Assembly: GCA_964582475.1 (NCBI GenBank)
Contig: CAZOQS010000004.1
Location: 63,489-127,488 of the forward strand
Reading direction: 5' to 3'
Length of the DNA: 64,000 nucleotides
Source of the DNA: an uncultured Gammaproteobacteria bacterium
GTDB taxonomy: Bacteria; Patescibacteriota; Patescibacteriia; 2-12-FULL-60-25
Below are positions 28,018 through 46,873 of the stretch, one piece after another (position 1 is the stretch's first letter; every line of letters begins with the position of its first letter). The notes beneath the pieces were generated by a model that did not search any database, was not told the origin of the DNA, and saw nothing but the letters and a program-made list of their open reading frames with translations. A program made the position numbers and the translations under genes.

Positions 28018-28449
28018 ATGCCTACTATTAACCAGCTGGTTCGACGCGCCCGCAAGCCATTGGCCGTCAAATCAAAGAGCCCTGCGCTCCAATTCAAGAT
28101 GGACACGCTGCACCGCGTTCGCACGGAATACAAACGTGGATCCGGTTTGAAGCGTGGCGTATGTGTCAAAGTCACAACGATGACACCAAAAAAGCCAAAC
28201 TCTGCTATTCGTAAAATTGCGCGTGTGCGCTTGTCGAATGCACAGGAAGTAACAGCTTATATTCCTGGAGAAGGGCACAACCTTCAAGAGCACTCGATCG
28301 TCTTGATCCGTGGAGGTCGCGTAAAGGACTTGCCAGGTGTGCGCTATCACATCGTGCGTGGTGTCTACGATACGCAAGGTGTCCAAGGTCGTCGTGGCAG
28401 CCGTTCTCTGTACGGTGCTCGTCGTCCAAAGGAAGACAAGAAGAAATAA
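28018..28449 (+). CDS. rpsL: 30S ribosomal protein S12
   Basis: [13 protein letters not shown]...[10 protein letters not shown] canonical. Confidence 0.98.
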
Positions 28450-28472
28450 TTTTCAGTCTTTGATATTCAATT

Positions 28473-28940
28473 ATGCGCGGAAAGAAAGCCCCTCGTCGCA
28501 AGGTTGCGAACGACCCGAAGTACAACAACGCTGTTATCACCAAGTGTATTAACTACTTGATGATCGGTGGAAAGCGTCAGCTTGCTCAGAAGATTGTCTA
28601 CGGAGCATTGGCTATCGCTGAAGAAAAGCTTCAGAAGCCAGCCGCAGAAGTGTTCGAAGAAGCGATGAAGAACGTTTCCCCAATGCTCGAGGTCAAATCT
28701 CGCCGCGTGGGTGGAGCGAACTACCAAGTTCCTCTCCAGGTGCGCGCTGATCGCCGTGTGCAGCTCGCGTTGCGCTGGATGATTACCGCCGCTCGTTCTC
28801 GCAAGGGAAAGCCGATGATCGAGAAGCTCGCAACAGAATTCATCGACGCTGCTCAGAACCAAGGAGAAGCGGTTCGCAAGAAGACGGACGTACAGCGCAT
28901 GGCCGAAGCCAACCGCGCCTTCGCTCACTTCGCCAAGTAA
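28473..28940 (+). CDS. rpsG: 30S ribosomal protein S7
   Basis: Canonical S7 sequence (VEVKSRRVGGANYQVP) in str-operon position. Confidence 0.98.
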   Translation: MRGKKAPRRKVANDPKYNNAVITKCINYLMIGGKRQLAQKIVYGALAIAEEKLQKPAAEVFEEAMKNVSPMLEVKSRRVGGANYQVPLQVRADRRVQLALRWMITAARSRKGKPMIEKLATEFIDAAQNQGEAVRKKTDVQRMAEANRAFAHFAK

Positions 28941-28962
28941 CAGATTATTTAGTGAATACCGA

Positions 28963-29014
28963 GTAGCTAGTAGCGAGTAGCAACCGAAAGCGCTACACCT
29001 ACTAGCTACTTTTG
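28963..29014 (+). terminator. Hairpin/terminator between rpsG and fusA
   Basis: 11-bp stem GTAGCTAGTAG / CTACTAGCTAC with an inner hairpin, followed by TTTTG. Confidence 0.5.
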
Positions 29015-29061
29015 CTCTTAGCCAGTTCAGCTCATCTCTCATCTTCTCTCACTCCATTCGT

Positions 29062-31143
29062 ATGCCCCGTGAATATTCATTGAAAGACACTCGCAACTTC
29101 GGAATTATCGCTCACATCGATGCAGGAAAGACCACTGTGTCTGAGCGTATTTTGTTTTATACAGGAAAGAAGCACAAAATTGGAGAAGTGCACGAAGGTG
29201 AAGCGACGATGGACTGGATGGAGCAGGAACAAGAGCGCGGAATCACGATTACTGCCGCTGCGACAACCTGTTACTGGAAGGGCTCGCGCATGAACTTGAT
29301 CGATACTCCAGGACACATTGACTTCACGATTGAAGTGCAGCGTTCACTTCGTGTACTCGACGGAGCTGTAACCGTGTTCGACGGTGTAGCTGGTGTGGAA
29401 TCACAGTCCGAAACGGTGTGGCGCCAGGCGGACAAGCACAATGTGCCTCGTATTTGTTTCATCAACAAACTCGACCGCATGGGAGCGAACTTCTATAACG
29501 ACGTGAAATCGATTCACGATCGTTTGACGAAGAATGCACATCCAATTCAGTTGCCGATCGGTGCGGAAGAAAACTTCATCGGGATCATCGACCTCGTGCG
29601 CATGAAGGCCGAGATGTACAGCGATGAAATGGGTCAGAACATCGCAGAAGTTGAAATTCCAGAAGACATGATGGAGAAGGCGAAGGAATATCGCGCAAAG
29701 ATGATTGAAGCGATTTCTGAGACGGACGAAGACATGATGAACCGCTATCTCGCAGGCGAAGAATTCACGGTTGAAGAAATCAAAGCTGGGATCCGCCGCG
29801 CAACGATCGCGAACCAGATCAATCCAATTTTGTGTGGCTCAGCGTTGAAGAACAAGGGTGTACAGTTTTTGCTCGACGCGATCGTGGAGTATCTCCCATG
29901 TCCGTTAGACATCCCTCCAACAAAAGCAACGGAAGTCGATGACCTCGATGTCTCCTTAGCGATTACCCCACAAGACAGCGAGCCATTCGCAGCGTTGGCC
30001 TTCAAGGTCATGGCTGACCCATTCGTCGGAAAATTGATTTTCTTCCGCGTCTACTCCGGAATGTTGTCTGCTGGATCTTATGTGATCAATGCACGTACAG
30101 GGGAAAAAGAACGTATTGGTCGCATCGTCCGCATGCACGCGAACGATCGTGAAGAGGTCTCAGAGGTTTTCTCTGGTGACATCGCCGCTGCCGTTGGATT
30201 GAAAGGAACATTGACGGGGGACACGCTCTTCGATGAAAAGCGTCCTTTGAAACTTGAATCGATCATCATTCCAGAGCCAGTTATTTCGCTCGCTGTTGAA
30301 CCAAAGACAAAGGCTGACCAAGAAAAGATGGGTGTCGCGTTGCAGAAGTTGGGTGAAGAAGATCCTTCCTTCCGTGTACGTACCGACGAAGAAACGCTTC
30401 AGACCATTATCAGCGGGATGGGTGAATTGCACCTTGAAATCATCGTTGATCGCATGAAGCGCGAATTCAAAGTGGACGCGACGGTTGGTAAGCCACAGGT
30501 TGCCTATCGTGAAGCCTTGAAGGGATCTGCTGAAGGAGAAGGGAAATATATTCGTCAGTCTGGTGGTCGTGGTCAGTACGGTCACTGTGTGATCACGGTT
30601 GAACCAAACGAACGCGGCAAGGGCTACGAATTCGTTGATAGTATCAAGGGTGGTGTGATTCCTCGCGAATTCATCCAGCCAATTAACAAGGGTATTCAAG
30701 AAGCGATGCTGCGTGGCGTGTTGGCTGGTTATCCAATGCTCGATGTGAAGATCACGTTGACCGATGGAAGCTACCACGACGTTGACTCGTCCGAAGCATC
30801 TTTCAAGGTCGCTGGATCACTCGCCTTCCAGGATGGTTGTCGCAAGGGTGGTGTCGTCATTCTTGAGCCAGTCATGAAAGTCGAAGTCGTTACTCCAGAA
30901 GCCTTCATGGGAGACGTTATCGGTGACTTGAACGCCAAGCGTGGACAGATCGAGGATGTGGCAGACCGTTCGAGCGTGAAAGTCATTCGCGCCTTGGTCC
31001 CACTCGCTGAAATGTTCGGCTACTCGACCTCGCTTCGTTCTATGACCCAGGGTCGCGCCAGCTCCACTATGGAATTTGGCCAGTACGAAGAAGTTCCAAA
31101 CAACATCTCAAAGATCATCATCGAAGGTCGCACCAAGAAATAA
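29062..31143 (+). CDS. fusA: Elongation factor G
   Basis: G-domain motifs [14 protein letters not shown] and NKLD. Full-length EF-G. Confidence 0.98.
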
Positions 31144-31173
31144 GACGCGTAGAACCGATCGGCGGTTCAAACG

Positions 31174-31210
31174 AAACCCAGCCTCTGGCAGTATGCCTAG
31201 GCTGGGTTTT
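31174..31210 (+). terminator. Intrinsic terminator after fusA
   Basis: Stem AAACCCAGCCT / AGGCTGGGTTT followed by a T-run. Confidence 0.7.
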
Positions 31211-31241
31211 CGGTTCACGACGCGTAGGGTAGGCTGCTGCC

Positions 31242-31727
31242 ATGGCTATACCTGCACTGACCCGGCTGCTCGAACTCGTTCACCGTACCCGCTTACCGCT
31301 GATCGTTCAGTCTTCGGATGCCAGCGAGCCCTGCGTCGTCCTACCTTTGAGTGTCTATGAGAAACTGGTAGGGGGAGTATCTGAAGTTTTGGGAGGGGAT
31401 GAGTCCCAATCTCTCCCTATGGCTGAGCCTCAAGCGTCATTGGCAGACTTCTTGACCCCTGCATCAGATCGCTCATCTGCCGCGTCGAGTGGCGCACCTG
31501 ATCGTTCGGAGTTAGAATCTAGAAACAGCCTCCGACTTCAAGATCTCCTTCAGGTCCAGGCTGAAATACCAGCCAAATCGCCAGTATCCGCAGTTCTTCC
31601 CCAGGTGGGTTCGGTGGAAGACCACTTTGCTTTCGATGGGCTTGATGTGAGAATTTTGCCTAAGACAAGGCAAAAAATAGGTGACATGCAAGATGCTCTT
31701 GACGGAAGTGGGCAGACTCTTGCCTGA
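31242..31727 (+). CDS. Hypothetical protein between fusA and tuf (N-terminus resembles a Phd/YefM-type fold; disordered acidic/Ser tail)
   Basis: 161-aa ORF bracketed by the fusA terminator and the tuf promoter region. N-terminal pattern LTRLLELVHRTRLPLIVQSSDASEPCVVLPLSVYEKL. Confidence 0.45.
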   Translation: MAIPALTRLLELVHRTRLPLIVQSSDASEPCVVLPLSVYEKLVGGVSEVLGGDESQSLPMAEPQASLADFLTPASDRSSAASSGAPDRSELESRNSLRLQDLLQVQAEIPAKSPVSAVLPQVGSVEDHFAFDGLDVRILPKTRQKIGDMQDALDGSGQTLA

Positions 31728-31795
31728 AATCAACGTCTTTGTTATCATCATGCCACTCATAATTACGTATTTTTAGTCTTATTTGACCTGCTCCT

Positions 31796-32986
<1,191 letters not shown>

Positions 32987-32994
32987 GCTAAACC

Positions 32995-33055
32995 GGGGAG
33001 GTTCCCCGCCTCGTAAAGAGCATCTCGCATGTTCTACGAGGTGGGGAACCTCCCC
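32995..33055 (+). promoter_or_regulatory. Long stable hairpin between tuf and rpsJ (21-nt arms, no U-tract)
   Basis: GGGGAGGTTCCCCGCCTCGTA (32995-33015) pairs with TACGAGGTGGGGAACCTCCCC (33035-33055). It ends 10 nt before the rpsJ ATG. Confidence 0.6.
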
Positions 33056-33065
33056 TCCATTGCAC

Positions 33066-33416
33066 ATGTCCGATATCAAGACAAAGGCAGCCCCAGTAGT
33101 GAAAACAGCGGGAGCACAGCGCGTGCGGATTAAGATCCGTGCCTATGATCATAAGATCATTGACCAGGCGACTCGCATGATCATCGAAACGGCTGAACGG
33201 AATGGTGGGAAAGTGATCGGCCCGATCCCGTTGCCGACAGAAAAGAAGAAGTGGACCGTCAACCGTTCCACGTTCATCTACAAGGACGCTCGTGAGCAGT
33301 TTGAAATGCGCATTCATAAGCGCATTGTCGACATCTTGGATCCAAATCCAAAGACGATCGATTCGCTCACCTCTCTCAACCTCCCAGCGGGTGTTGATGT
33401 AGAGATCAAAATGTAA
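33066..33416 (+). CDS. rpsJ: 30S ribosomal protein S10
   Basis: [38 protein letters not shown] canonical S10. Confidence 0.97.
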
Positions 33417-33551
33417 GAGTGTGTGGTTCCCAAGGAGAAAGTTGTCTGAAGGCTTACTTCAAAACGTGCTCGTTTAACGAGTGCGTGACATAACCTCCCT
33501 GCAGTGAATCGTGAAGTTCCGAAACGTCGGTTCAGCCTCTTCTAGGTTGAG

Positions 33552-33602
33552 ACCGGGAGTTTGGAGACAAACGATTGTCTGCAGACTCCCGGTTTTGTTT
33601 TT
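33552..33602 (+). terminator. Strong intrinsic terminator/attenuator inside the rpsJ-rplC spacer
   Basis: ACCGGGAGTTTGGAGACAA-acga-TTGTCTGCAGACTCCCGGT (about 19 bp, one mismatch) followed by TTTTGTTTTT. Confidence 0.7.
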
Positions 33603-33629
33603 ATCCATCCGCGACCAATCCGATCGCAT

Positions 33630-34235
33630 ATGAAATTCATCCTCGGTAAGAAACTCGAGATGTCGCAAATTTACGGAGCAGATGGAAATCTGATTCCCGT
33701 AACTTTAGTGCAGGCGGGTCCATGTGTTATCACGCAGGTTAAGACGAAAGAGACGGACGGCTACGAAGCGGTGCAGGTTGGATTTGGCACTTCCCGTACG
33801 CTGACACGTCCAGAGGCTGGTCACTTGAAAGATCTTCCTCAAGCTCCTCACTTGTGCGAATTCCGGTTGTCAGATGTCGCGTCCTTCAAGCGTGGTGACG
33901 CGATTGAGGCAGCGGTCTTCCAGCCAGGTGATAAGGTAAACGTTCGTGGGACATCGAAGGGCAAGGGCTTTCAGGGTGTGGTGCGTCGTCATCACTTCCA
34001 TGGTCACCCAACGAGTCACGGTCACAAGGACCAAGAGCGTATGCCAGGTTCTATCGGTGCCGGTGGTGTTCAGCACGTGTTGAAAGGCCGCCGTATGGCC
34101 GGTCACATGGGCGACGAATCGGTCATGGTGAAGAACTTAGTTGTCGTCGAAGTGCGTGAAGGGGGAATCCTCGCTCTGAAAGGAGCCGTCCCAGGAGCCC
34201 GTCATTCTTTGATTGAAATCGTTTCCGCTTCCTAA
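33630..34235 (+). CDS. rplC: 50S ribosomal protein L3
   Basis: MKFILGKKLEMSQIY...GKGFQGVVRRH canonical L3. ATG at 33630. Confidence 0.95.
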   Translation: MKFILGKKLEMSQIYGADGNLIPVTLVQAGPCVITQVKTKETDGYEAVQVGFGTSRTLTRPEAGHLKDLPQAPHLCEFRLSDVASFKRGDAIEAAVFQPGDKVNVRGTSKGKGFQGVVRRHHFHGHPTSHGHKDQERMPGSIGAGGVQHVLKGRRMAGHMGDESVMVKNLVVVEVREGGILALKGAVPGARHSLIEIVSAS

Positions 34236-34237
34236 AT

Positions 34238-34864
34238 ATGGCTAAGACATCGATCTACAACTACCAGGGTCAATCAGTCGGCCAGATGGAACTTCCGGAC
34301 CGTCTGTTCGCTGTGACTCCAGATCCAGCTCTCGTGCACGAAGCCGTGATTGCTCAGCGCGCCAACGCACGTCATGCAATTGCTGCAACGCAAACCAAGG
34401 GAATGGTGCACGGAGGCGGAAAGAAGCCATGGAAGCAAAAGGGAACTGGTCGCGCCCGTCAGGGATCGATTCGTTCTCCTCAGTGGAAGGGTGGAGGTGT
34501 CGTGTTCGGTCCAAGTTCCGAACGCAACTTCTCGCTCAAGATGAACCGCAAAGCGAAGCGCAAGGCTTTGTCGATGGTACTCACCGACAAACTTATGCGT
34601 GAAAAACTCATTGTGCTCGAGACGATCATGAAAGAGCCAGTGAAGACCAAGACGTTCCTCGCGATGATGCAGAAACTTCCTGTTGATCGCACGACGCTCA
34701 TGGTGCTTGGTGGCTCGGATCCAGTCGCAGTTCGCATGGCTCGCAACCTTCCATCCGTGAAGGTCGTGACCGTCAACAGCTTGAACATGCTCGATCTCTT
34801 GACCTACCGTTCCGTAGTCTTTTTGAAAGACGCTATTTCGGCGTTGGAACAGATCTACGCCTAA
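34238..34864 (+). CDS. rplD: 50S ribosomal protein L4
   Basis: GGGKKPWKQKGTGRARQGSIRSPQWKGGGVVFGP canonical L4. Confidence 0.97.
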   Translation: MAKTSIYNYQGQSVGQMELPDRLFAVTPDPALVHEAVIAQRANARHAIAATQTKGMVHGGGKKPWKQKGTGRARQGSIRSPQWKGGGVVFGPSSERNFSLKMNRKAKRKALSMVLTDKLMREKLIVLETIMKEPVKTKTFLAMMQKLPVDRTTLMVLGGSDPVAVRMARNLPSVKVVTVNSLNMLDLLTYRSVVFLKDAISALEQIYA

Positions 34865-34873
34865 TATTCTCCT

Positions 34874-35290
34874 ATGGGAATTATTGACCGCATCCGCAAG
34901 CAGCCGGCTGACAAAGCCACGAAGGACGCTGCTGCTCCAAAGACAAAGAAGACGGCAAAGAAGCCAGAGGCTGATTTGTCCGTCAAAGCTCCTACAACCG
35001 TCCTTCCTTCTTGGATGTACTCCGTTGTTGGCGCGCCTCGCGTAAGCGAAAAGGCTTCCCGTTTAGTAACGGAAACCAACACCTACACCTTTAATGTGCC
35101 AATCGCTGCTGAAAAGGTTGCCATCCGCAAAGCAATTGAAGCTCGTTACGGCGTGAAGGTGGTCGCTGTTCGCACAATTCGTGGCGCTGGAAAAGTCGTC
35201 CGCCGTGGACGCATTGAAGGTCGCCGCAATGCCTGGAAGAAGGCTTTGGTTGAGCTTAAACCAGGATCATCGATTGATCTCTCCGCGTAA
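34874..35290 (+). CDS. rplW: 50S ribosomal protein L23 (Lys-rich N-terminal extension of about 45 aa)
   Basis: The C-terminal 90 aa match L23 (YTFNVPIAAEKVAIRKAIEARYGVKV). Operon position. Confidence 0.92.
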   Translation: MGIIDRIRKQPADKATKDAAAPKTKKTAKKPEADLSVKAPTTVLPSWMYSVVGAPRVSEKASRLVTETNTYTFNVPIAAEKVAIRKAIEARYGVKVVAVRTIRGAGKVVRRGRIEGRRNAWKKALVELKPGSSIDLSA

Positions 35291-35295
35291 TTGTT

Positions 35296-36135
35296 ATGCC
35301 TATTAAGCAATACAAGCCTGTTACCAAAGGCCGCCGTTTCTCCTCGGTTCAGGATTTCTCCGACATCACGACCAACGAGCCAGAGAAAACGCTTATCTCG
35401 TTCCGCAAGAGCCGAGCAGGTCGTTCGAATGGAAAGATCACCGTTCGTCACCAGGGTGGTGGCAACAAGCGTTATACGCGTGAAATTGACTTCGTCCGTT
35501 CTCGCTACGACATCCCAGCGAAAATCGTTTCGATTGAATACGATCCAAGCCGTGGTGCCCGTATCGGTCTCGTGAACTACGCCGATGGTGTGAAGAGCTA
35601 CATCCTTCTTCCATTCGGTTCAAAGGTAGGGGACACCATTGTGTCTTCGCGCACAGAAGCTGAAATCACGGTTGGAAACCGTTTGCCACTTGAAAAGATC
35701 CCTGTCGGTACGCAGGTCCACGGAGTTGAATTGAATCCAGAGCAGGGCGCGAAAATCGCTCGTGCCGCTGGAACGTTGATCAGCTTCATGGCGATTGAAG
35801 GCGACACAGCTATTTTGAAGATGCCATCCGGCGAAGTCCGCAAGGTTCCAAAATCTTGCTCGGCAACAATCGGAACAGTTTCGAACCCAGACTGGCACTT
35901 GGTGCGCTGGGGAAAAGCTGGTCGTATGCGTCATCGTGGGATCAAGCCTACCGTCCGCGGTAAGGTGATGAACCCGGTCGATCACCCACACGGTGGTGGT
36001 GAAGGTAAGCATCCAATCGGTATGAAGTACGCCAAGACGAAGTGGGGTAAGCATGCGCTTGGTGTGAAAACACGTCGCACGCACCGCTCCTCTGATCGCC
36101 ATATTCTTACCCGTCGTCGCGGGAATACGCTCTAA
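35296..36135 (+). CDS. rplB: 50S ribosomal protein L2
   Basis: Canonical L2 (MNPVDHPHGGGEGK). Confidence 0.98.
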   Translation: MPIKQYKPVTKGRRFSSVQDFSDITTNEPEKTLISFRKSRAGRSNGKITVRHQGGGNKRYTREIDFVRSRYDIPAKIVSIEYDPSRGARIGLVNYADGVKSYILLPFGSKVGDTIVSSRTEAEITVGNRLPLEKIPVGTQVHGVELNPEQGAKIARAAGTLISFMAIEGDTAILKMPSGEVRKVPKSCSATIGTVSNPDWHLVRWGKAGRMRHRGIKPTVRGKVMNPVDHPHGGGEGKHPIGMKYAKTKWGKHALGVKTRRTHRSSDRHILTRRRGNTL

Positions 36136-36141
36136 CCTCCT

Positions 36142-36453
36142 ATGTCACGTAGTCTTAAAAAAGGTGCTTTCACCGATGCCAAGCTTCTTGCAAAGGTCAT
36201 CGCTCAGAAGGCTGGGGATAAAACCCCCATCAAGACGTGGTCTCGTGCTTCGACGATCACTCCTGAGATGGTCGGTAAAACAATGGCAGTCCACAATGGT
36301 AAGATGCACATTGCGGTTGTTATCGTTGAGAACATGGTTGGACACAAGCTTGGAGAGTTCTCTCCAACGCGTAAGTTCGTTCGTCATGGTGGTAAATTAG
36401 CTAAGTCGGATGCTCCAGCGGCCAAGCCAGCTGCAGCTCCAGCTAAGAAATAA
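36142..36453 (+). CDS. rpsS: 30S ribosomal protein S19
   Basis: [10 protein letters not shown]...VHNGKMHI canonical, plus an Ala/Lys-rich tail. Confidence 0.97.
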
Positions 36454-36456
36454 TCT

Positions 36457-36882
36457 ATGGACGTTCACGCATTTCTCCGTTCCCTCCGTATCTCACCTCG
36501 CAAAGTGCGTTTAGTGATCGATGCGGTTCGTGGAAAGTCTGTGAAAGACGCGGATATCCGTTTGTCTCTCATGAACAAGGGTGCTGCCTTGCCAGTGCTC
36601 AAGCTTTTGCGTTCCGCGATTGCAAACGCAGAACATAACTTCAAAATGGAATCGAGCTCGTTGTACATCAAGTCGATTACAGCGGACGGCGGACCAACAT
36701 TGAAGCGCTCGCGCCCTCGCGCCTTTGGTCGAGCAGCGCCGATTCGCAAGCGAACCACGCATCTTTCGATTGTGTTGGCTGATCGTGCCGAACTTGCGGA
36801 CAAGAAGAGCACAAAGAGCAAGAAGGTTGAGAAAGTTGAAAAGACTGTCAGCCCTAAGAAGTCCTCTTCTTTGAAGGCCTAA
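36457..36882 (+). CDS. rplV: 50S ribosomal protein L22
   Basis: RISPRKVRLVIDAVRGKSV canonical, plus a Lys-rich C-terminal tail. Confidence 0.96.
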   Translation: MDVHAFLRSLRISPRKVRLVIDAVRGKSVKDADIRLSLMNKGAALPVLKLLRSAIANAEHNFKMESSSLYIKSITADGGPTLKRSRPRAFGRAAPIRKRTTHLSIVLADRAELADKKSTKSKKVEKVEKTVSPKKSSSLKA

Positions 36883-36887
36883 CCTCT

Positions 36888-37706: not shown

Positions 37707-37721
37707 TCGAACCCACGCATT

Positions 37722-38132: not shown

Positions 38133-38134
38133 GT

Positions 38135-38335: not shown

Positions 38336-38601
38336 TGACCACTCCTCCAACCACCACTCCTCACCGCCGTCTGCAGGGAGTCGTTGTATCTAACAAGATG
38401 CAAGCGACAACTGTTGTGCGTGTGGACCGTCGTGTTGCTCACCCGAAATACGGAAAGTATTTTACGGTTTCGAAGCGTTTCAAGATTCACTCCCCAGGAG
38501 TGACGCTCGATCTCGGAGATATCGTCCAGTTCGAAGAGTGCCGACCTATTAGCCGCGACAAGCGCTGGCGCTATATTGCAACCTTGAAGAAGGTTGCGTA
38601 A
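38332..38601 (+). CDS. rpsQ: 30S ribosomal protein S17
   Basis: [30 protein letters not shown] canonical. ATGA overlap with the rpmC stop. Confidence 0.95.
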
Positions 38602-38608
38602 TCCCTTT

Positions 38609-38980
38609 ATGATTCAACACCGATCGATGATCGCCGTCGCGGATAACACCGGAGCAAAGTTGCTTCAGTGTATCGGCGTACAGGGCGGCTACAAGATGCG
38701 CTATGCGGGTCTTGGAGACGTGGTGACCTGCGTCGTGAAGGAAGCAGCCCCACGCGGTATGGTAAAGAAGTCCGATATCGTTCACGCCGTGCTCGTGCGT
38801 ATCCGCAAGGAAACACGCCGACCAGATGGAACGTATATCCGTTTTGATGAAAATGCAGCGGCGATTATTGACCCGAAATCTCTTGATCCAAAAGGCACAC
38901 GTATCTTCGGCCCAGTTGCACGCGAATTGCGTGGACGTGGCTTCTCGAAGATCGTGTCCTTAGCTCCAGAAGTGCTCTAA
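38609..38980 (+). CDS. rplN: 50S ribosomal protein L14
   Basis: [17 protein letters not shown] canonical start. Confidence 0.97.
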
Positions 38981-38982
38981 CT

Positions 38983-39291
38983 ATGGCGACTCATCCAGTA
39001 AAGACCGGCGACACTATCGAAGTGATCGCGGGAAAAGATCGTGGGAAAACTGGGAAAGTGCTGCAAGTGTTTCCTCGCTTGGCGCGCGTTTCCGTACAGG
39101 GGATTAATCTCATGAAGCGTCACATGCGCAGCCGACGCTCAGGAGACAAGGGACAGATCGTCCAGTTCCCAATGCCCATCCATCTTTCAAACGTTCGTGT
39201 AAGCTCCGCAACGGAAAGCGCTTCTGAAAAAGCTCCGGAGAAAGAAGCTCCTGCTAAAAAGAAGGCGACGACACGTAAGACGAAGACCTAA
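38983..39291 (+). CDS. rplX: 50S ribosomal protein L24
   Basis: KOW motif GDTIEVIAGKDRGKTGKV plus a Lys-rich tail. Confidence 0.96.
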   Translation: MATHPVKTGDTIEVIAGKDRGKTGKVLQVFPRLARVSVQGINLMKRHMRSRRSGDKGQIVQFPMPIHLSNVRVSSATESASEKAPEKEAPAKKKATTRKTKT

Positions 39292-39294
39292 CCT

Positions 39295-39834
39295 ATGACC
39301 ACCCTTAAGGAACAATATCAGGCCCAAGTCGTTCCGGCCCTCCGCGAACAATTTGGCATCAAGAACGCCATGGCCCTTCCGAAAGTCACGAAGGTCGTGG
39401 TTTCTGTTGGCTTGTCACAGGCGATCAAGGATCCAAAGGTAATGGAAATGGTTGAACAGACACTCACGCGCATTACGGGTCAAAAGCCAGTGCGTACCAA
39501 GGCGAAGAAGTCCATCGCCAGTTTCAAAATTCGTGAAGGAATGATTGTTGGAATGATGGTGACGCTTCGTGGTCCACGTATGTGGGACTTTTTGACGAAG
39601 TTGACACGCATCACCTTCCCTCGTATTCGTGACTTCCGTGGGATCAGTGCCAAATCCATCGATGCGCAAGGAAATGCCTCGATCGGGTTCCGCGAGAACT
39701 TGGCGTTCCCTGAAATCCGCCCAGACGAAATCGAGCGTACTCATGGTCTTCAGATCACGATTACGACAACCGCCGGAGCCAAAGACCGCGGTCTCGCGCT
39801 TCTTAAAGGGCTTGGCTTTCCTTTCCAGAACTAA
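39295..39834 (+). CDS. rplE: 50S ribosomal protein L5
   Basis: Canonical L5 sequence and position. Confidence 0.97.
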   Translation: MTTLKEQYQAQVVPALREQFGIKNAMALPKVTKVVVSVGLSQAIKDPKVMEMVEQTLTRITGQKPVRTKAKKSIASFKIREGMIVGMMVTLRGPRMWDFLTKLTRITFPRIRDFRGISAKSIDAQGNASIGFRENLAFPEIRPDEIERTHGLQITITTTAGAKDRGLALLKGLGFPFQN

Positions 39835-39846
39835 TCCAACGATCCT

Positions 39847-40032
39847 ATGGCTACTGAAGCTCAAATTGCCAAGTCCCGTCGCAAGCCGAAGTTTTCTTCG
39901 CGCCTTGTTCGACGCTGCTGGCGCTGCGGCCGCACCCACGGATTCATGCGTATCTTCGGACTCTGTCGCATCTGCTTCCGCGAGATGGCGAACCGCGGTG
40001 AAGTCCCAGGTGTGACCAAATCCAGCTGGTAA
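39847..40032 (+). CDS. rpsN: 30S ribosomal protein S14, short zinc-binding (type Z) form
   Basis: 61 aa with CWRCGRTHG...CRIC. Confidence 0.96.
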
Positions 40033-40043
40033 TATCCCACGTT

Positions 40044-40436
40044 ATGTCTACTGACCCGATCAGCGATTTCCTCACCCGTATCCGTAACGCACATCTCGTG
40101 CGCCACGACGTGGTGACCGCCCCAAGTTCTCGCATCAAGCGAGCGATTGCCGATATCCTTCAGCGTGAAGGCTATATCGAATCCGTCGAAGAGAAGTCTG
40201 AAGGTGCGAAGCGTACGATCTCCGTTCGCTTAAAGTATGTCGGAAAGCTGCCAGCGATTCACCAGCTCACGCGTATTTCGAAGCCTGGCCGCCGCGTGTA
40301 TCGCAAGAATGATGAACTTCCTCGTGTCCTGTCTGGACAGGGGATGGCGATCATCTCCACTTCCGTTGGTCTCATGACGGATCGTGAAGCGCGTGCTCGT
40401 AAGCTGGGGGGAGAAATCTTGTGTGAAATTTCCTAA
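40044..40436 (+). CDS. rpsH: 30S ribosomal protein S8
   Basis: DPISDFLTRIRNA canonical. Confidence 0.97.
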   Translation: MSTDPISDFLTRIRNAHLVRHDVVTAPSSRIKRAIADILQREGYIESVEEKSEGAKRTISVRLKYVGKLPAIHQLTRISKPGRRVYRKNDELPRVLSGQGMAIISTSVGLMTDREARARKLGGEILCEIS

Positions 40437-40445
40437 CCTCCGCTT

Positions 40446-40997
40446 ATGTCACGTATTGGAAAAAAACCAGTCCTCCTCCCTGCCGGCGTCGATGCCACCA
40501 TCGAAGCAAAGCAGGTGACGATCAAAGGACCGAAAGGGACGCTGCACGTTGGTCTTCCAGCGGCGGCTAAGATTGAGATGCAAGCCGATCCTCGTGCGTT
40601 GCTTGTGACGGTTACCCGTCCAGAGCACGTCGATGACCGCGCCATCTGGGGTCTTGTTCGTCAATTGCTCTCGAACGCCGTAGACGGTGTTCAGAAGCCA
40701 TTCGAAAAGGCGCTCGAATTCGTCGGAGTTGGATTCAAGGTCGCGCTCGAAGGTCGCAAGCTCATGATGGATCTTGGATTCTCGCACCGCGTTCCGTTTG
40801 AACTCCCAGAAGGAATCGATGGGAAGGTCGAGAAGCAGGTTTTGACGCTCTCCGGCATCGACAAAGCTCTTGTTGGAGAAACGGCTGCTCGCATTCGTCG
40901 CAATCGTCCACCAGAGCCTTATAAGGGCAAGGGTGTGAAGTATGTTGATGAAGTAATTCGTCGCAAGGCTGGTAAGACAGCTAAGTCTGCTGGCTAA
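40446..40997 (+). CDS. rplF: 50S ribosomal protein L6
   Basis: MSRIGKKPV canonical. Confidence 0.97.
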   Translation: MSRIGKKPVLLPAGVDATIEAKQVTIKGPKGTLHVGLPAAAKIEMQADPRALLVTVTRPEHVDDRAIWGLVRQLLSNAVDGVQKPFEKALEFVGVGFKVALEGRKLMMDLGFSHRVPFELPEGIDGKVEKQVLTLSGIDKALVGETAARIRRNRPPEPYKGKGVKYVDEVIRRKAGKTAKSAG

Positions 40998-41003
40998 CCC
41001 CTT

Positions 41004-41366
41004 ATGAAGATCTCCCTAGCAAACCAACAAAAGGCGCGTCGTATCGCACGTGTTCGCGCGACTATTTCCGGAACAGCTGAGCGTCCACGTCTCGCTGTCT
41101 TCCGCAGCCTCGCGCATATTTCTGCGCAGGTGATTGATGATACCTCCGGCAAAACTCTTGCCGCGGTCCGTGATGTCGAATTGTCCGAAGCAGAGCGCAA
41201 AGGCAAGAAGAAGCTTGAAATTGCGAAGGCTGTCGGAATGCTTCTCGGAACGCGCGCCATGGAAAAGGGTGTGAAAGCGGTCGTCTTCGATCGTCGCGAT
41301 AAGAAATACCACGGTCGTGTTCGTGCTCTCGCTGAGGGCGCGCGCGAAGCGGGTCTCACATTTTAA
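41004..41366 (+). CDS. rplR: 50S ribosomal protein L18
   Basis: Canonical L18 (RPRLAVFRSLAHISAQVIDD). Confidence 0.96.
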   Translation: MKISLANQQKARRIARVRATISGTAERPRLAVFRSLAHISAQVIDDTSGKTLAAVRDVELSEAERKGKKKLEIAKAVGMLLGTRAMEKGVKAVVFDRRDKKYHGRVRALAEGAREAGLTF

Positions 41367-41369
41367 TCT

Positions 41370-42179
41370 ATGATGAACGAAGAACAGCAACCAACCTCCG
41401 CGCCAGAGGCGCCAGAAGCAGCAGCTGCTCCAGCTGCTGAAAACACAGCCGCTCCAGCGGCAGCGGCGGCAACGCCAGCTGCAGCTCCTGCGTCTGCTTC
41501 GGCTGCAGCACGTCCATATGGTGGAGGTGCCCGTGGTCCAGGCGGTGGCTTCCGTGGCGGAAGCCGCGGTCCAAGCGGAGGTGCTCGTGGCGGCCAGGGT
41601 GGTCGCGGCGGTGCTGCCGGTGGTCGTGGAGGTCGAGGTCCAGGCGGCCCAGGTGGTCGCGGTGGACGTCGCGATGGTCAGTCTGGAGATGTTCCAGCCG
41701 AAGCCGACTACGACGAAAAGAACTTGGAAGTCTCACGTGTTACACGTGTGACCCAGGGTGGAAAGCGCATGCGCTTCCGCGTGTTGAGCGTGATCGGAAA
41801 CCGCAAGGGACGTGTTGGATATGGCTTGGCAAAAGGATTGGATGTCGCAGCTGCTTCCACCAAGGCCGCAACCAAAGCACGCAAAGCCCTTCTGACAGTT
41901 CCACTCATCAACGAAACAATTCCTCACATGGTGCGTGCAAAGGCGGGTGCCGCTGTCGTCTTGTTGAAGCCAGCGCCAAAAGGAGCTGGAATCAAAGCCG
42001 GTGGTGCAACGCGTGCCGTACTTGAAATCGCTGGTGTACCAAACGTTGTTTCGAAGCTCCTCGGATCTTCCAACAAGGTGAACGTCGTGCGCGCAACTTT
42101 TGCCGCCCTGCGCATGCTCCGCATGCCAATCAGCAAGACGGACGATAAACAGCCTAAGGAAGACGCTCCAAAGGCCTAA
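41370..42179 (+). CDS. rpsE: 30S ribosomal protein S5 with an N-terminal Ala/Pro then RGG-repeat extension of about 110 aa
   Basis: The S5 core starts near LEVSRVTRVTQGGKRMRF. The preceding residues are AAAPAA... and GGARGPGGGFRGGSRGPSGGARGGQGGRGG... Confidence 0.93.
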   Translation: MMNEEQQPTSAPEAPEAAAAPAAENTAAPAAAAATPAAAPASASAAARPYGGGARGPGGGFRGGSRGPSGGARGGQGGRGGAAGGRGGRGPGGPGGRGGRRDGQSGDVPAEADYDEKNLEVSRVTRVTQGGKRMRFRVLSVIGNRKGRVGYGLAKGLDVAAASTKAATKARKALLTVPLINETIPHMVRAKAGAAVVLLKPAPKGAGIKAGGATRAVLEIAGVPNVVSKLLGSSNKVNVVRATFAALRMLRMPISKTDDKQPKEDAPKA

Positions 42180-42190
42180 TCTCACCTGCT

Positions 42191-42658
42191 ATGTCATTAA
42201 GTCTTCACACAATTGCCCCGAACGTAGGCTCACATGAGCGCTCGTTCCGTATCGGTCGTGGTCACGGCTCCGGTCGTGGCAAAACGGCAGGTAAGGGAAC
42301 AAAGGGTCAGAAGTCCCGTTCCGGTGGAAAGGGTGGCTTGAAAATGCACGGCATGAAGCAGATGCTTCTCTCCTTCCCAAAGGTCCGTGGGTTTAAGAGC
42401 TTTGCGTCGAAGTTGGTCTCGATTCCTGTTCAGCGCTTGGATGTATTTCCAGAAGGAACGACGATTGACTTGAAAGCCATGCATGCAGCCGGTCTCTTGC
42501 ATCGCGGAGAACATACCGTCAAAATTATTGGGGGAACAGCTCCAACGCACAAACTGACAGTTGTCGGCTTGCGTATGACTGCTTCTGCGAAGGAATTGAT
42601 CGAGAAAGCTGGTGGATCGGTCGTTGCTGGTGACAGAAAGAAAAAGAAGACTGCCTAA
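42191..42658 (+). CDS. rplO: 50S ribosomal protein L15
   Basis: GRGHGSGRGKTAGKGTKGQKSRSG canonical. Follows rpsE directly, with no rpmD between them. Confidence 0.96.
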   Translation: MSLSLHTIAPNVGSHERSFRIGRGHGSGRGKTAGKGTKGQKSRSGGKGGLKMHGMKQMLLSFPKVRGFKSFASKLVSIPVQRLDVFPEGTTIDLKAMHAAGLLHRGEHTVKIIGGTAPTHKLTVVGLRMTASAKELIEKAGGSVVAGDRKKKKTA

Positions 42659-42697
42659 TTCCGTGTCTTTCCCTCGAAGCTGAGGGAAGATTCCTCT

Positions 42698-43975
42698 ATG
42701 TGGGACAAACTCCTTCGTGCGTGGCAGGTCAAAGAGGTTCGACATGGGTTGCTGTTCGTGATCGCCATGATGGTGATCTTCCGAGTAGTCGCTCATATTC
42801 CGTTGCCTGGTGTTGATCTTGCAGCGCTCCAACAGTTTTTTGACGCGAACCAAGTCTTGGGTGTCTTGAACTTGTTCTCAGGTGGAACGATCCGAACATT
42901 CAGCATTGTGGCGTTGGGTGTCGCTCCATACATCACCGCTTCGATTATCTTGCAGCTCTTGGCAGTCATCATCCCTCGTTTGGAAGAGATCCAGAAAGAA
43001 GGAGAAAGCGGCCAGCGTAAGATCAATCAGTGGACACGTCTTCTGACGGTTCCGCTTGCGCTGATTCAAGGAGTAGGGCTTCTGACGCTTATGCGTCAGT
43101 CGCAGGTGCCTATCTTGACCAGAACGGATCCGGTTCACATCGCTGCCATCTTGATCGCCGTCACAGCAGGAACCTTGTTCCTCATGTGGATTGGCGAATT
43201 GATCAGCGAAAAGAAAGTCGGAAATGGTGTTTCCTTGTTGATCTTCGCGGGTATTTTGGCGGATCTTCCAAGTTCGCTTGGACAGTTCATCACAACCTTC
43301 GATTCGTCACAGTGGATCATCGTCTTCATCTACGCAGCGATTGCGATTTTGATGGTTGCGGGTGTAGTCTTCGTTACAGAAGGTCAGCGCAACATTCCAA
43401 TCCAACACGCGCGCAGTGTTCGTGGGCAGGCTGGGTCAACAGGTGGAGTAGCCTCGAGCTTGCCACTTCGTGTGAATATGGTGGGTGTGATGCCGATTAT
43501 CTTCGGTATTTCATTCCTCACGTTCCCAACAATGTTGGCGCAGCTCTTCGCTCAGGCGAATAATCCAAGTCTGCGCAGTGCAGCTGCTTGGATCCTGACG
43601 ACGATGCAAAACCAAACGATTTACGCCATTCTGTATCTGGCATTGGTTGTTGGCTTTACCTACTTCTACACGGCGGTTGTGTTCCATCCAGAACGGGTGG
43701 CAGAGAATCTCCAGAAGCAAGGAGCCTTCATCCCGGGTATCCGCCCAGGGCCACCAACGGCAAGCTATTTGGAAGGAATCGTTGGTCGTATGACGTTAGC
43801 CGGAGCCATCTTCTTGGGTCTTATCGCGGTGCTGCCAATTGTCGCTCAAGGGCTGACAGGGACGCAGACATTGGCGATTGGAGGAACCTCTATGCTGATC
43901 GTCGTGTCGGTGGTGATCGAGTCTGTAAAACAGATTCAGTCGCAAACAACGATGCGTGAATACGATACGTACTAA
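42698..43975 (+). CDS. secY: Preprotein translocase subunit SecY
   Basis: 10-TM protein with canonical SecY motifs (LGVAPYITASIILQLL, GISLLIF-like). Confidence 0.97.
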   Translation: MWDKLLRAWQVKEVRHGLLFVIAMMVIFRVVAHIPLPGVDLAALQQFFDANQVLGVLNLFSGGTIRTFSIVALGVAPYITASIILQLLAVIIPRLEEIQKEGESGQRKINQWTRLLTVPLALIQGVGLLTLMRQSQVPILTRTDPVHIAAILIAVTAGTLFLMWIGELISEKKVGNGVSLLIFAGILADLPSSLGQFITTFDSSQWIIVFIYAAIAILMVAGVVFVTEGQRNIPIQHARSVRGQAGSTGGVASSLPLRVNMVGVMPIIFGISFLTFPTMLAQLFAQANNPSLRSAAAWILTTMQNQTIYAILYLALVVGFTYFYTAVVFHPERVAENLQKQGAFIPGIRPGPPTASYLEGIVGRMTLAGAIFLGLIAVLPIVAQGLTGTQTLAIGGTSMLIVVSVVIESVKQIQSQTTMREYDTY

Positions 43976-43994: not shown

Positions 43995-44030
43995 TACACA
44001 ATGAGAACCCACCAGGGTTCTCATTGTGTA
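43995..44030 (+). terminator. Strong hairpin after secY (weak U-tract)
   Basis: Perfect 16-bp stem TACACAATGAGAACCC / GGGTTCTCATTGTGTA with loop ACCA, followed by TTCT. Confidence 0.5.
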
Positions 44031-44054
44031 TTCTGGGTGGTAGGCTTCCACTAT

Positions 44055-44411
44055 ATGACCCCTGAATACACCGATGCGGCTCATTATCTTGGAAAGAGTG
44101 TTACGGTTCTGATTGATCGCCCCCTAGGGACTAAGCACCCAAAGTATGGCTACAGATACCCGATTAATTACGGGTTTGTTGAAGGGACGATTTCTCCCGA
44201 TGGGCGAGAATTGGATGCATATGTTCTCGGGGTAGATGAGCCGGTGGGAGAGTATACGGGGCGCTGTATCGCCATTATCCGTCGAATTACTGCTCCAGAT
44301 GATAAATTGATTATTGTCCCTGAGGGAAAAACCTTTTCGCAAGAAGAGATTCGTGAAGCGACGCACTTTCAGGAGCAGTTTTTTCAGATTGAAATGATCT
44401 TCCCCTCGTAG
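44055..44411 (+). CDS. Small inorganic-pyrophosphatase-like protein (tentative)
   Basis: 118 aa. YPINYGFVEGTISPDGRELDAYVLG resembles the PPase YPxNYGFxPxT...DGDPxDxxV core. ATG at 44055 in the host context (ctatATG). Confidence 0.45.
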   Translation: MTPEYTDAAHYLGKSVTVLIDRPLGTKHPKYGYRYPINYGFVEGTISPDGRELDAYVLGVDEPVGEYTGRCIAIIRRITAPDDKLIIVPEGKTFSQEEIREATHFQEQFFQIEMIFPS

Positions 44412-44555
44412 GAGAGGGCCTCGATCGTTTGTTGTCGGATAGGCTCATTTTGGCTATTCTTACGGGTATATGCAACGTGAAGATGGACATCGGTTCAAGC
44501 TACTCTCGCCGTCAGCAGAGGGACTACTGTCTCCACCGGTCGTGTAGCGGTTTCT

Positions 44556-45227
44556 ATGCCACGTAAGCGTGTTCGGGCCGTGTTATTCGGCCCTCAAGGA
44601 GCGGGAAAGACGACTCAGGCACAATTGCTGTCTGAGTGGTTTGGAGCAGCTTCCCTGAGCTCGGGGCAGCTTCTGCGTGGGGAGATGGAAGAAGGAACAC
44701 CGCTTGGACAATTAGTGAAGCGCTACGTCGAGCATGGGGTGTTGGCGCCAGACGAGGTAGTGAATGCCATTTTGCGGAAACGGCTACTGTTGGAGGTGGA
44801 ATCAAAACAAGGATTCTTCCTAGACGGATTTCCTCGAAACGTAGAACAGGCGGGGGATTTAGATAAATATACAAATATTAATCTAGCGATTCATCTGAAG
44901 GTGTCCGATGCAGTTGCGGAATCTCGTATGCTAGGACGACTCTTCTGTGAATCCTGTCAGGCGGTTTATCATGAGACATACGTTCCCGTCTTGAAGGCGG
45001 GAATCTGTACTATTTGCGGAGGTCCTGTAAAACGACGTCCAGATGATGCCGATGATGGGTCGGTGCGCGACCGGCTGCTCGCATATCACTTCATGACCGA
45101 GCCGCTTGTGACCTATTATCGGCAGCAGGGAGTGCTTCTTTCGGTGAATGCGGATCAGCCGATCCCATTCTTATTCCAGGAGCTGGTAAAGAAGCTTACG
45201 AAGTTAGGATTTGTGCCGGGACAATAA
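44556..45227 (+). CDS. adk: Adenylate kinase (zinc-lid type)
   Basis: P-loop GPQGAGKTT. Lid CESC...CTICGG. Confidence 0.95.
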   Translation: MPRKRVRAVLFGPQGAGKTTQAQLLSEWFGAASLSSGQLLRGEMEEGTPLGQLVKRYVEHGVLAPDEVVNAILRKRLLLEVESKQGFFLDGFPRNVEQAGDLDKYTNINLAIHLKVSDAVAESRMLGRLFCESCQAVYHETYVPVLKAGICTICGGPVKRRPDDADDGSVRDRLLAYHFMTEPLVTYYRQQGVLLSVNADQPIPFLFQELVKKLTKLGFVPGQ

Positions 45228-45247
45228 TTCCGTTACGCTCACTGCCC

Positions 45248-46027
45248 ATGTCACTTATCAAAACCCCCCTAGAAATAGAGAAGCTGAAAGCTGGCGGAAT
45301 CATCCTCTCAGCTATTTTGCGTGAGCTCAAAGCAAAGTGTATTGCTGGCGCTGAAACAGCTGAATTAGATGCATTGGCGCAGAAGCGTATGGCAGAGCAT
45401 GGAGGAAAGCCCTCATTCTTAGGCTATACTGCCGCAAAAGACGTAGCCCCCTTTCCCGGAGCTGTCTGCATTTCAATCAACGAAGAAGTTGTGCATGGAT
45501 TGCCAACCCCTACGCGCACGATAAAAGAAGGCGATATCGTTGGTCTTGATATTGGCATGTGGTACGAGGGGCTCGCGACAGATATGGCGACGACTGTTGT
45601 TGTCGGAAAGATTTCTGATTCGGTACAGGCCTTAGTTACAGAAACACGCGCCTCACTTGAAGTGGCGTTGATGCAGGTAAAAGCAGGAAAGTGGATTCAC
45701 GATATTGGGAATGCGATTGATGATTATCTCACGCCGAAAGGCTATGGAATCGTTCGTGATCTTGTCGGCCACGGCGTAGGGCATGCGGTTCATGAAGATC
45801 CACAGATCCCACACTTTCGTGATCGTTATACGCCACGCGTAAAAATGCAGGAGGGGATGGTGCTTGCGATTGAGCCGATGGTAACACTTGGAACTTGGAA
45901 GGTGCGTGTGAAGCGCGATGGCTGGACAATTGTTACGACCGATGGAAAGCCGGCAGCGCATTTCGAGCTTTCGGTTGTCGTCACGAAGACGGGGTACGAG
46001 CTCGTTACTCCTTGGCCAGACGTTTAA
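45248..46027 (+). CDS. map: Methionine aminopeptidase, type I
   Basis: Metal ligand pattern (DIGMWYEGLATD, HGVGHAVHE, LAIEPM). Confidence 0.96.
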   Translation: MSLIKTPLEIEKLKAGGIILSAILRELKAKCIAGAETAELDALAQKRMAEHGGKPSFLGYTAAKDVAPFPGAVCISINEEVVHGLPTPTRTIKEGDIVGLDIGMWYEGLATDMATTVVVGKISDSVQALVTETRASLEVALMQVKAGKWIHDIGNAIDDYLTPKGYGIVRDLVGHGVGHAVHEDPQIPHFRDRYTPRVKMQEGMVLAIEPMVTLGTWKVRVKRDGWTIVTTDGKPAAHFELSVVVTKTGYELVTPWPDV

Positions 46028-46048
46028 ACACAGGATCGAAGCTTCTCT

Positions 46049-46873
46049 ATGCCAGAGCTTCCAGAGGTGGAAACCATCCGCCGCCAACTCGATCGACACT
46101 TGCGTGGGGCGATCATTAAAAAGATTGAATTATTTCGCACGGGTCGTGAACGTCCTGCGGGGAAGGTATTTGTTGATGCACTCACCGGCCAGGCGATTCG
46201 TTCTATCGATCGACGCGCGAAGCTTTTAATTTGGCGGCTTAAGAGCGATCAAGCGGTCCTCGCGCATCTGAAGATGACGGGGAAGTTCCTGTTTGTAGAT
46301 CAGGAGTATGAGATAACTAAGCATGATGCGATTCGGTTCACGTGTGAGGACGTGCAAGGAAAAGAGCTTTTTCTCGTCTGGAACGATGTACGTAAATTTG
46401 GGTTTATGGAGCTCGTATCGGCGGAGGAGCTAAAAGCGAAGCTTGAAACATATGGTCCAGAACCGCTCGAAGCTACAACGCAGATGTTGGCTGACTGTTT
46501 GCGAACGCCAAAAACGCGCCTCCTGAAAGCGGCGCTCCTCAATCAAGCCTGTATCGCGGGGATCGGGAATATCTACGCCGATGAAGTCTGTCATCGCGTA
46601 GGAATTCATCCTCGTCGTACGTTAAGGGCGTTATCTGAGGCAGAACGACTTCGCTTAGCGGAAGCGATTCAGGCGGTTCTGTTAGAGTCGCTTAATCAAC
46701 GTGGAACGAGCGCGCATACGTATATGGATACGTCCGGTTCAAAAGGAGGCTTTCTGTCATTCCTTCGGGTCTATGGTCGAGAAGGGGACCCGTGTCGTAC
46801 GTGTGGCACCCCGATTGAAAAATTCCGCTTAGTTCAGCGAGGAACGCACGTCTGCCCTACGTGCCAATCTTAG
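46049..46873 (+). CDS. mutM: Formamidopyrimidine-DNA glycosylase
   Basis: MPELPEVE N-terminus, H2TH region, C-terminal zinc finger CRTCGTP...CPTC. Confidence 0.94.
   Translation: MPELPEVETIRRQLDRHLRGAIIKKIELFRTGRERPAGKVFVDALTGQAIRSIDRRAKLLIWRLKSDQAVLAHLKMTGKFLFVDQEYEITKHDAIRFTCEDVQGKELFLVWNDVRKFGFMELVSAEELKAKLETYGPEPLEATTQMLADCLRTPKTRLLKAALLNQACIAGIGNIYADEVCHRVGIHPRRTLRALSEAERLRLAEAIQAVLLESLNQRGTSAHTYMDTSGSKGGFLSFLRVYGREGDPCRTCGTPIEKFRLVQRGTHVCPTCQS

Follow-up and report, generated by a model that had tools for sequence, protein, structure and literature searches.

Start sites with uridine at -1 and no Shine-Dalgarno sequence in a putative Uhrbacteria-like bacterium, next to foreign-looking genes that carry the Shine-Dalgarno sequence

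Initiation of translation that is independent of the Shine-Dalgarno (SD) sequence is known from Bacteroidia and from some cyanobacteria. In Bacteroidia, the anti-SD tail of the 16S rRNA is sequestered by the ribosomal proteins bS21, bS18, and bS6 (PMC7797042). In Parcubacteria, the anti-SD motif itself is reported to be missing in roughly half of the members, which overlap the group lacking ribosomal protein uL1 (Tsurumaki et al. 2022, PMC9297842). The base directly 5' of the start codon also contributes to initiation; compensatory tRNA mutations and ~45,000 E. coli leaders have shown that a uridine at position -1, U(-1), boosts initiation by pairing with A37 of tRNAfMet (PMC10018350, which also cites earlier chloroplast and E. 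coli work on this pair). Here, we describe the start sites of the genes in a 64,000-nucleotide stretch from an uncultured bacterium (positions 63,489 to 127,488 of contig CAZOQS010000004.1, assembly GCA_964582475.1; hereafter the window), which contains the str/S10/spc ribosomal superoperon. Host genes throughout the window are nearly devoid of SD sequences and mostly carry T at -1, whereas six foreign-looking genes each carry a strong SD and none has T at -1. The reading we hold to be probable, based on sequence comparison, is that native genes are translated without SD pairing, from UAUG-marked starts on G-poor, weakly structured leaders, and that the foreign genes keep the SD of their donors.

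The host set comprised 65 genes across the whole window, each taken to start at its first in-frame ATG, and the -1 base was never used in choosing the start. An SD-like 4-mer (GGAG, GAGG, or AGGA in -20 to -4) precedes 2 of the 65 host genes (3%) and all six of the genes flagged as foreign in an initial annotation of the window (Fisher p=2e-7), compared with 13.4% of the random positions that served as background. The best pairing with ACCUCCUUUCU averages -1.9 kcal/mol for host leaders, -12.3 kcal/mol (range -11.6 to -13.1) for the flagged genes, and -3.5 kcal/mol for the random positions; random sequence thus pairs with the anti-SD better than host leaders do. In the ten nucleotides before the start (-10 to -1), the pyrimidine fraction is 0.67 in host genes, 0.35 in flagged genes, and 0.50 in the background, and G makes up 11% of the bases in host genes and 42% in flagged genes. 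Folding of 40-nt windows yields -4.3 kcal/mol when centred on host starts and -7.4 kcal/mol inside genes (p=5e-12), and the starts are overwhelmingly AUG. The same operons of E. coli K-12, used as a control, have an SD 4-mer in 24 of 30 genes, a mean duplex of -7.1 kcal/mol, a pyrimidine fraction of 0.28, and T at -1 in 1 of 30.

The initial annotation had described the superoperon as free of SD sequences, and this description holds. None of the 28 homology-anchored genes in 28018-46873 has a purine-rich SD after correction of the starts, and the nine junctions that had been quoted (rpsS, rpsC, rplE, rplF, rplR, rplO, secY, mutM, and tuf) are present as written. Five starts were corrected by reading frames (rpsJ, 33066; rplC, 33630; rpmC, 38135; rplN, 38609; rpsN, 39847), and the C/T-rich, SD-free pattern persists. 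The leaders of the 25 homology-anchored superoperon starts are SD-free, G-poor, and C/T-rich, and only those of rpsL and rpsJ lack T at -1; the four genes downstream of secY share the SD-free, pyrimidine-rich start context (for example, ...tttctATG in adk and ...ttctctATG in mutM). Most of the genes are operon-internal with spacers of 2-40 nt, and most ribosomal protein junctions span 2-16 nt; the same start features are found in the 37 host genes outside 28018-46873, which include divergently transcribed and first-in-operon genes. A consistent SD in some class of host genes was sought across orthologues and none was found; weak SD-like complementarity (-7 kcal/mol or below) is seen in 27% for rplB, 22% for rpsJ, and 16% for rplX.

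The relatives of the window identified through SecY are confined to metagenome-assembled genomes (MAGs) of Patescibacteria, also called the candidate phyla radiation (CPR), from which we conclude that the host is an Uhrbacteria-like CPR bacterium, as judged by this similarity. SecY is 89-92% identical in five loci (L005-L009), 66-72% in MAGs named Candidatus Uhrbacteria, and 53-58% in Magasanikbacteria, Komeilibacteria, and Kerfeldbacteria; the GC content of the window is ~52%.

T occupies position -1 in 54 of the 65 host genes (83%) and in none of the six flagged genes (Fisher p=9e-5; binomial against a 24% background, p=1e-23), and C occupies position -2 with a frequency of 0.49. The window proteins were projected onto related loci by tblastn, again ignoring the -1 base. 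In loci with 64-92% SecY identity, which gave 525 unique upstream sequences, T(-1) reaches 93% and 1.69 bits, with no SD-like signal, and G falls to 6-14% at -9 to -1 against a background of 28%. Positions -9 to -2 carry only 0.1-0.4 bits, mainly G-avoidance and TAA stops, and an excess of A at -7 to -5 coincides with upstream TAA stop codons. In a strictly anchored set, in which the projected N-terminus is itself ATG and rpsJ is left out, T(-1) amounts to 97% at 64-92% SecY identity (n=424; the rest is C, with no purines), 93% at 53-63% identity (n=283; A+G about 5%), 70% in more distant SD-poor CPR (n=78), and 39% in SD-using CPR (n=54). Across all long open reading frames (ORFs), T(-1) is 0.53-0.70 at the first ATG and 0.14-0.26 at internal ATGs, while the SD 4-mer fraction in the clade, 0.09-0.15, matches the internal-ATG background of 0.10-0.12 and compares with 0.43 in SD-using CPR. 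The signature is common to a large CPR clade made up of Uhrbacteria, Magasanikbacteria, Komeilibacteria, and most Kerfeldbacteria-labelled MAGs. One Kerfeldbacteria-labelled MAG amid this SD-free clade (L044, compared with L061) has an SD in 60% of its operon genes and T(-1) in 53%, which may reflect a reversal or wrong binning of the contig.

Pyrimidine richness is less widely shared. High values are found largely in the window and in the loci more closely related to it (0.65-0.69 in the nearest ones, 0.58-0.71 in several at 68-74% SecY identity), and many clade members with T(-1) of at least 0.9 have a pyrimidine fraction of only 0.38-0.50. The host signal is a near-invariant U(-1) together with G depletion, and U(-1) extends over a far broader CPR clade than pyrimidine richness does. 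The initial annotation had proposed SD-independent initiation, possibly with an unusual upstream signal; both parts are supported, and the signal proves to be U(-1) and G depletion rather than TAA-CCT or CCTCC.

The positions given earlier for the GGAGG strings of all six flagged genes, including the serine recombinase, are correct (Table 1), and the view that the presence of an SD marks foreign DNA is supported by composition and by strain comparison. The five high-GC genes have a GC content at third codon positions (GC3) of 0.73-0.90, compared with ~0.5 in host genes, while that of the recombinase gene is only mildly raised. Searches of the flagged genes against Pfam identified CdsA, an M23 peptidase, and a large serine recombinase; the histidine-phosphatase match is weak and below the cutoff, and two genes are without a hit. 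The cdsA insert, which was found on 17 contigs, lies exactly between the rplK terminator and the rplA promoter, and in L212, L213, and L217, which encode an identical L11 protein, the site is empty and rplK is followed directly by rplA; the flanks in L212 are 97-98% identical to the window. The recombinase island, which carries genes for the serine recombinase, an M15 peptidase, the M23 peptidase, and the histidine-phosphatase-like protein, is absent from L205, L212, and L215, where 0.36-0.6 kb of other sequence stands in its place. Because the M15 peptidase gene and a 134-aa ORF inside the island have host-like composition and T(-1), the island is a mosaic. Some strains carry the high-GC gene at the right end of the window, while in others it is replaced, and the one at the left end is present in all related contigs seen. 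These data support a foreign origin of the SD-bearing genes, and their strain-level presence and absence indicates that at least three regions are recent, strain-variable insertions.

On the rRNA side, no rRNA genes were found in the window, and among the 84 SecY loci examined for a 16S gene only L017 (SecY 67% identical) has one. This complete gene, located 8 kb downstream of secY (Rfam SSU_rRNA_bacteria, 804 bits), ends in a canonical anti-SD, ...GGATGGATCACCTCCTTTCTAG (also written GGATCACCTCCTTTCT and GGAUCACCUCCUUUCU; core CACCUCCUUUCU), and the operons of the same locus have an SD fraction of 0.00 and T(-1) of 0.95. A metagenome scan with the helix-45 variant of L017 yielded 120 CPR 16S ends, 90 of which (75%) carry the canonical core; the other 30 have altered or lost tails (for example CAUCUCC, AACAACUCC, AAAAUUUCUUU, and ACCACCAUUCUAA). 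On either side of the 16S genes with a canonical tail, long ORFs have T(-1) of 0.60 and an SD fraction of 0.18. A close relative of the window was sought among the 120 loci by DNA and protein similarity and none was found, the best protein matches being short and at most 77%. Since the window encodes uL1 and the L017 tail is canonical, the most likely state of the window organism is that the anti-SD is retained and the SD probably left unused, as in Bacteroidia; the loss or change of the anti-SD implied as a possibility by the initial annotation is not supported by these two observations. In the sampled 16S loci (L085-L204), GGGAG or AAGGAG just 3' of the gene can pair with the tail with apparent co-variation (CUCCC..AAGGGA; UUUCC..GGGAA), which suggests that the tail and the downstream segment form a conserved pre-rRNA hairpin. 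The 16S decoding region of L017 (20930-20960) reads TTCTCTACCGCCCGTCACATCAAG in place of the usual GTACACACCGCCCGTCACACC, and its 1390-1410 region is unusual for a bacterial 16S.

According to the UAUG reading, the 30S subunit would load on the unstructured, G-poor leader, or would arrive by coupling from the stop codon that lies a few bases upstream. The start would be fixed by the four-base sequence UAUG, in which U(-1) would pair with A37 beside the CAU anticodon of the initiator tRNA, and this pair would replace the anchoring energy normally provided by SD-antiSD pairing. The retained anti-SD would be masked or kept for other uses, and foreign genes would still bear the donor SD because they have not yet adapted to the host signals. 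Nine initiator-like tRNAs adjoining CPR 16S genes, which belong to other CPR than the lineage of the window, have a 1:72 mismatch, are near-identical to E. coli tRNAfMet, and carry A37 in all nine cases; by analogy with E. coli, U(-1) probably pairs with A37 in this clade.

Eight of these nine tRNAs (tRNA-Met CAU; L089, L094, L103, L107, L141, L152, L180, and L188) have the anticodon loop CCCAUAA, with C at position 33, a position that is near-universally U in tRNAs. Eukaryotic cytoplasmic initiator tRNAs have the CCCAUAA loop. In most of these CPR tRNAs, the 1:72 mismatch is A1.A72, and the third G-C pair is replaced by A29-U41.

Several points weigh against the UAUG reading. The case for a retained anti-SD comes from a single linked relative, whose SecY is 67% identical, and from the uL1 correlation; no 16S was recovered from the window organism or from a relative above 75% SecY identity. 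Almost every initiator tRNA has A37, and finding it is therefore not diagnostic. Under the first-ATG rule, 11 of the 65 host genes are without T(-1); several of these have a TATG a few codons downstream that is used by the gene calls of other assemblies (for example at 49370), and some T(-1)-less starts of the window are probably mis-assigned. The rpsJ gene deviates consistently: of its 36 orthologues, 11% have T(-1). T is depleted before internal Met codons (odds ratio, OR, 0.64), equally so in SD-using CPR (OR 0.66), which probably reflects general TpA avoidance, and the depletion of AUG near starts known from Bacteroidia, here ~2-fold, is also the same in SD-using CPR; as neither test of UAUG selection is stronger than in SD-using CPR, both are uninformative either way. 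We put forward a broader version of the UAUG reading more tentatively, as a possibility that we rate at rather less than even: a class-level CPR clade may have swapped the SD for a near-obligatory UAUG read by the anticodon and A37, maybe aided by the C33 CCCAUAA loop, with the anti-SD unused or masked, in which case start context would act as a clock for the amelioration of foreign genes.

The strongest alternative, which we regard as possible though somewhat unlikely, is a Bacteroidia-like, SD-blind ribosome, in which the anti-SD is sequestered on the 30S platform and SD sequences have been purged as useless or harmful, U(-1) and the G-poor leader being secondary tuning. Such a ribosome has a precedent in Flavobacterium johnsoniae (PMC7797042, PMC6847099) and accords with the canonical anti-SD of L017 next to its SD-free operons and with the depletion of anti-SD complementarity in host leaders below background. 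However, the window does not contain the genes for bS21, bS18, or bS6, and sequestration would apply here by analogy; the upstream context is C/T-rich and not A-rich as in Bacteroidia, and the strong SDs of strain-variable foreign genes would be pointless on a blind ribosome, although these genes may be too recent to have changed. An SD-blind ribosome would be compatible with the UAUG reading and would explain the avoidance of the SD.

Loss or mutation of the anti-SD in the window organism, as in about half of Parcubacteria, followed by decay of an SD left without a partner, is unlikely. The absence of the motif from a Parcubacteria subgroup (PMC9297842) and the altered or lost tails among the sampled CPR 16S ends speak for it, and the organism's own 16S was recovered neither from the window nor from the SecY loci or the 120 16S ends; on the other side, the lineages reported to have no anti-SD overlap with those that have no uL1, the only 16S linked to ribosomal protein genes in the clade is canonical, and so are three quarters of the sampled tails. 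As uL1 is present, the window organism is placed outside that subgroup.

Less probable still is the idea that the pyrimidine tract (CCUCC/CUCU) is an alternative ribosome-binding site that pairs with purine-rich rRNA as a 'reverse SD'. Many leaders of the window and of loci closely related to it are rich in C and T (pyrimidine fraction 0.58-0.71 at 68-92% SecY identity), and CCTC or CTCC occurs in 18 of 65 window leaders compared with 11.3 expected from mononucleotide shuffles. However, CTCT and TCTC are equally enriched, so CCTCC, which was considered as a specific motif and rejected, is a by-product of C/T tracts; motif and spacing are not fixed, the information at -9 to -2 is low, many clade members keep T(-1) without pyrimidine richness, and no complementary conserved rRNA partner was identified. 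The initial annotation had drawn attention to CCTCC as the complement of an SD, but CCUCC and the anti-SD core are alike in sense and therefore cannot pair with each other. Hardly any weight falls on an artefact of coupled ribosomal protein genes (termination-reinitiation), mis-annotated starts, or leaderless transcripts: the short junctions of the ribosomal protein genes make coupling plausible there, but the starts were homology-anchored without use of the -1 base, coupling as the only explanation is rejected by the same pattern in divergent and first-in-operon genes outside 28018-46873 and by the retention of the SD in equally compact E. coli operons, and leaderless initiation is rejected since operon-internal genes cannot be leaderless and the promoter box of rplA lies ~60 nt upstream of its ATG.

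The features of the window are collected in Table 1. The rplA promoter is of the canonical sigma-70 type (TTGACA-N17-TATTAT), and a clean intrinsic terminator follows rplK (both elements: window 16560-16660 and L212 6210-6317). The rpsJ leader contains a long-range hairpin of ~21 bp, CGGGGAGGTTCCCCGCCTCGTA ... TACGAGGTGGGGAACCTCCCC, which ends ~10 nt before the ATG and has no Rfam match; a role as leader or attenuator of the S10 operon is possible. A second hairpin (TTCCCTC-gaagct-GAGGGAA) is formed by the rplO-secY spacer. Its GAGGGA arm lies directly 5' of secY, recurs in the close relatives L005, L007, and L009, and holds the sole SD-like string close to a gene of the operon, a string that is paired within the stem. 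The ORF in the gap between fusA and tuf lacks an SD and is preceded by C at -1, so that it may not be a real gene. No L30 gene was found between S5 and L15 in the superoperon of the window, and ribosomal protein S5 carries an Ala/Pro/Glu-rich N-terminal extension, which accounts for a local rise in GC to 0.59.

Table 1. Positions of the genes, insertions, and leader elements discussed in the text (window coordinates).
Feature	Position	Strand	Description
High-GC gene	2226-3309 (ORF 2242-3309)	+	GC3 0.90; no Pfam hit; AAGGAGG 2226-2232, 9 nt before ATG 2242; G at -1
rplA (uL1)	15852-16559	-	Start ...cagtctATG at 16559; Pfam Ribosomal_L1 match 7e-58
cdsA insertion	16658-17734 (cdsA 16748-17635)	+	1,077 bp, single gene; GC3 0.87; GAGAGGAG at 16731-16738 (AGGAG 16734-16738), before ATG 16748
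Variable recombinase island	19396-24050	.	4.65 kb; adjoins tRNA-Pro(GGG) 19315-19391
Serine recombinase	19370-21088 (longest ORF)	-	GC 0.51; GC3 0.64; GAGGAGG 20956-20950, 5 nt before ATG 20944
M23 peptidase			AGGAGG 21776-21781, before GTG 21785 / ATG 21788
Histidine-phosphatase-like gene			GGAGAGGAG at 23463-23471, before ATG 23483
str/S10/spc superoperon	28018-43975	+	rpsL, rpsG, fusA, unknown ORF, tuf, rpsJ...rplO, secY
161-aa ORF	31242-31727		No Pfam hit
rpsJ leader hairpin	32990-33065		
rplB-rpsS junction (example)	36136-36144	+	taaCCTCCTatg: stop codon, C/T spacer, T at -1
Ribosomal protein S5 gene	41370-42179		269 aa; N-terminal extension of ~110 aa; Pfam S5 domain from residue 115
rplO-secY spacer	42659-42697		
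Genes after secY	44001-46873	+	Pyrophosphatase, adk, map, mutM
High-GC gene	61565-62317 (ORF 61565-62302)	-	GC3 0.76; no Pfam hit; AAGGAGGG at 62317-62310 (GGAGG 62315-62311), before ATG 62302

SD-independent initiation itself is known; the mRNA-side signature, that is, a near-obligatory U(-1) that is clade-wide in CPR and contrasts with SD-bearing acquired genes, appears to be new. A literature search, in which subscription journals were mostly uncovered and an earlier mention is therefore possible, returned no description of SD-free mRNAs or of U(-1) in CPR beyond a remark on the rRNA side (PMC9297842). The signature has a practical side, as gene callers that expect an SD or A-rich motifs may misplace starts in such MAGs, and in several cases the gene calls of different assemblies place the start of one and the same gene differently.

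By analogy, the closest known system is the SD-independent initiation of Bacteroidia, as studied in Flavobacterium johnsoniae (PMC6847099, PMC7797042, PMC13000453). Both share the genome-wide lack of the SD, low structure at the start, a short 'Kozak-like' context near the AUG, and the dominance of AUG as the start codon; the 16S anti-SD retained in Bacteroidia is canonical in the relative L017 and probably retained in the window organism as well. The Bacteroidia system is further marked by a strong SD on rpsU. The contexts themselves differ, as Bacteroidia have adenines at -3, -6, -12, and -13, which are not seen in the C/T-rich window leaders, where U(-1) and G-poor sequence are found instead, and the lineage here is CPR. 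The uL1-lacking Parcubacteria (PMC9297842) are members of the same superphylum and presumably form no SD helices, and tail variants comparable to theirs occur in the CPR 16S ends sampled here; in contrast, the window encodes uL1 and its relative has a canonical anti-SD, and the Parcubacteria study covers the rRNA side only and not the mRNA start context or U(-1). A near-invariant U(-1) in a large uncultured clade that keeps its anti-SD would be a different solution from both Bacteroidia and the cases of anti-SD loss.

The quadruplet pairing of U(-1) with A37 described by Hollerer & Jeschek (2023, PMC10018350) agrees with the present case in that a U 5' of the AUG favours initiation and that CPR initiator-like tRNAs carry A37. 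It differs in that the effect in E. coli is a modest tuning, whereas U(-1) in the clade reaches 93-97% and coincides with the absence of the SD. If the UAUG reading is correct, this clade would provide a natural, genome-scale case of initiator-tRNA quadruplet pairing, which in E. coli and chloroplasts has so far been shown only to tune initiation weakly. The SD-bearing genes, in turn, resemble horizontally acquired islands elsewhere in their deviant GC3, the recombinase beside a tRNA gene, presence and absence among strains, and the retention of the donor SD, and they differ in how clean the contrast is, with the SD in 6/6 compared with 2/65 genes and U(-1) in 0/6 compared with 54/65. Because of this clean contrast, start context can be used as a simple marker of recently acquired DNA in the genomes of this CPR clade.

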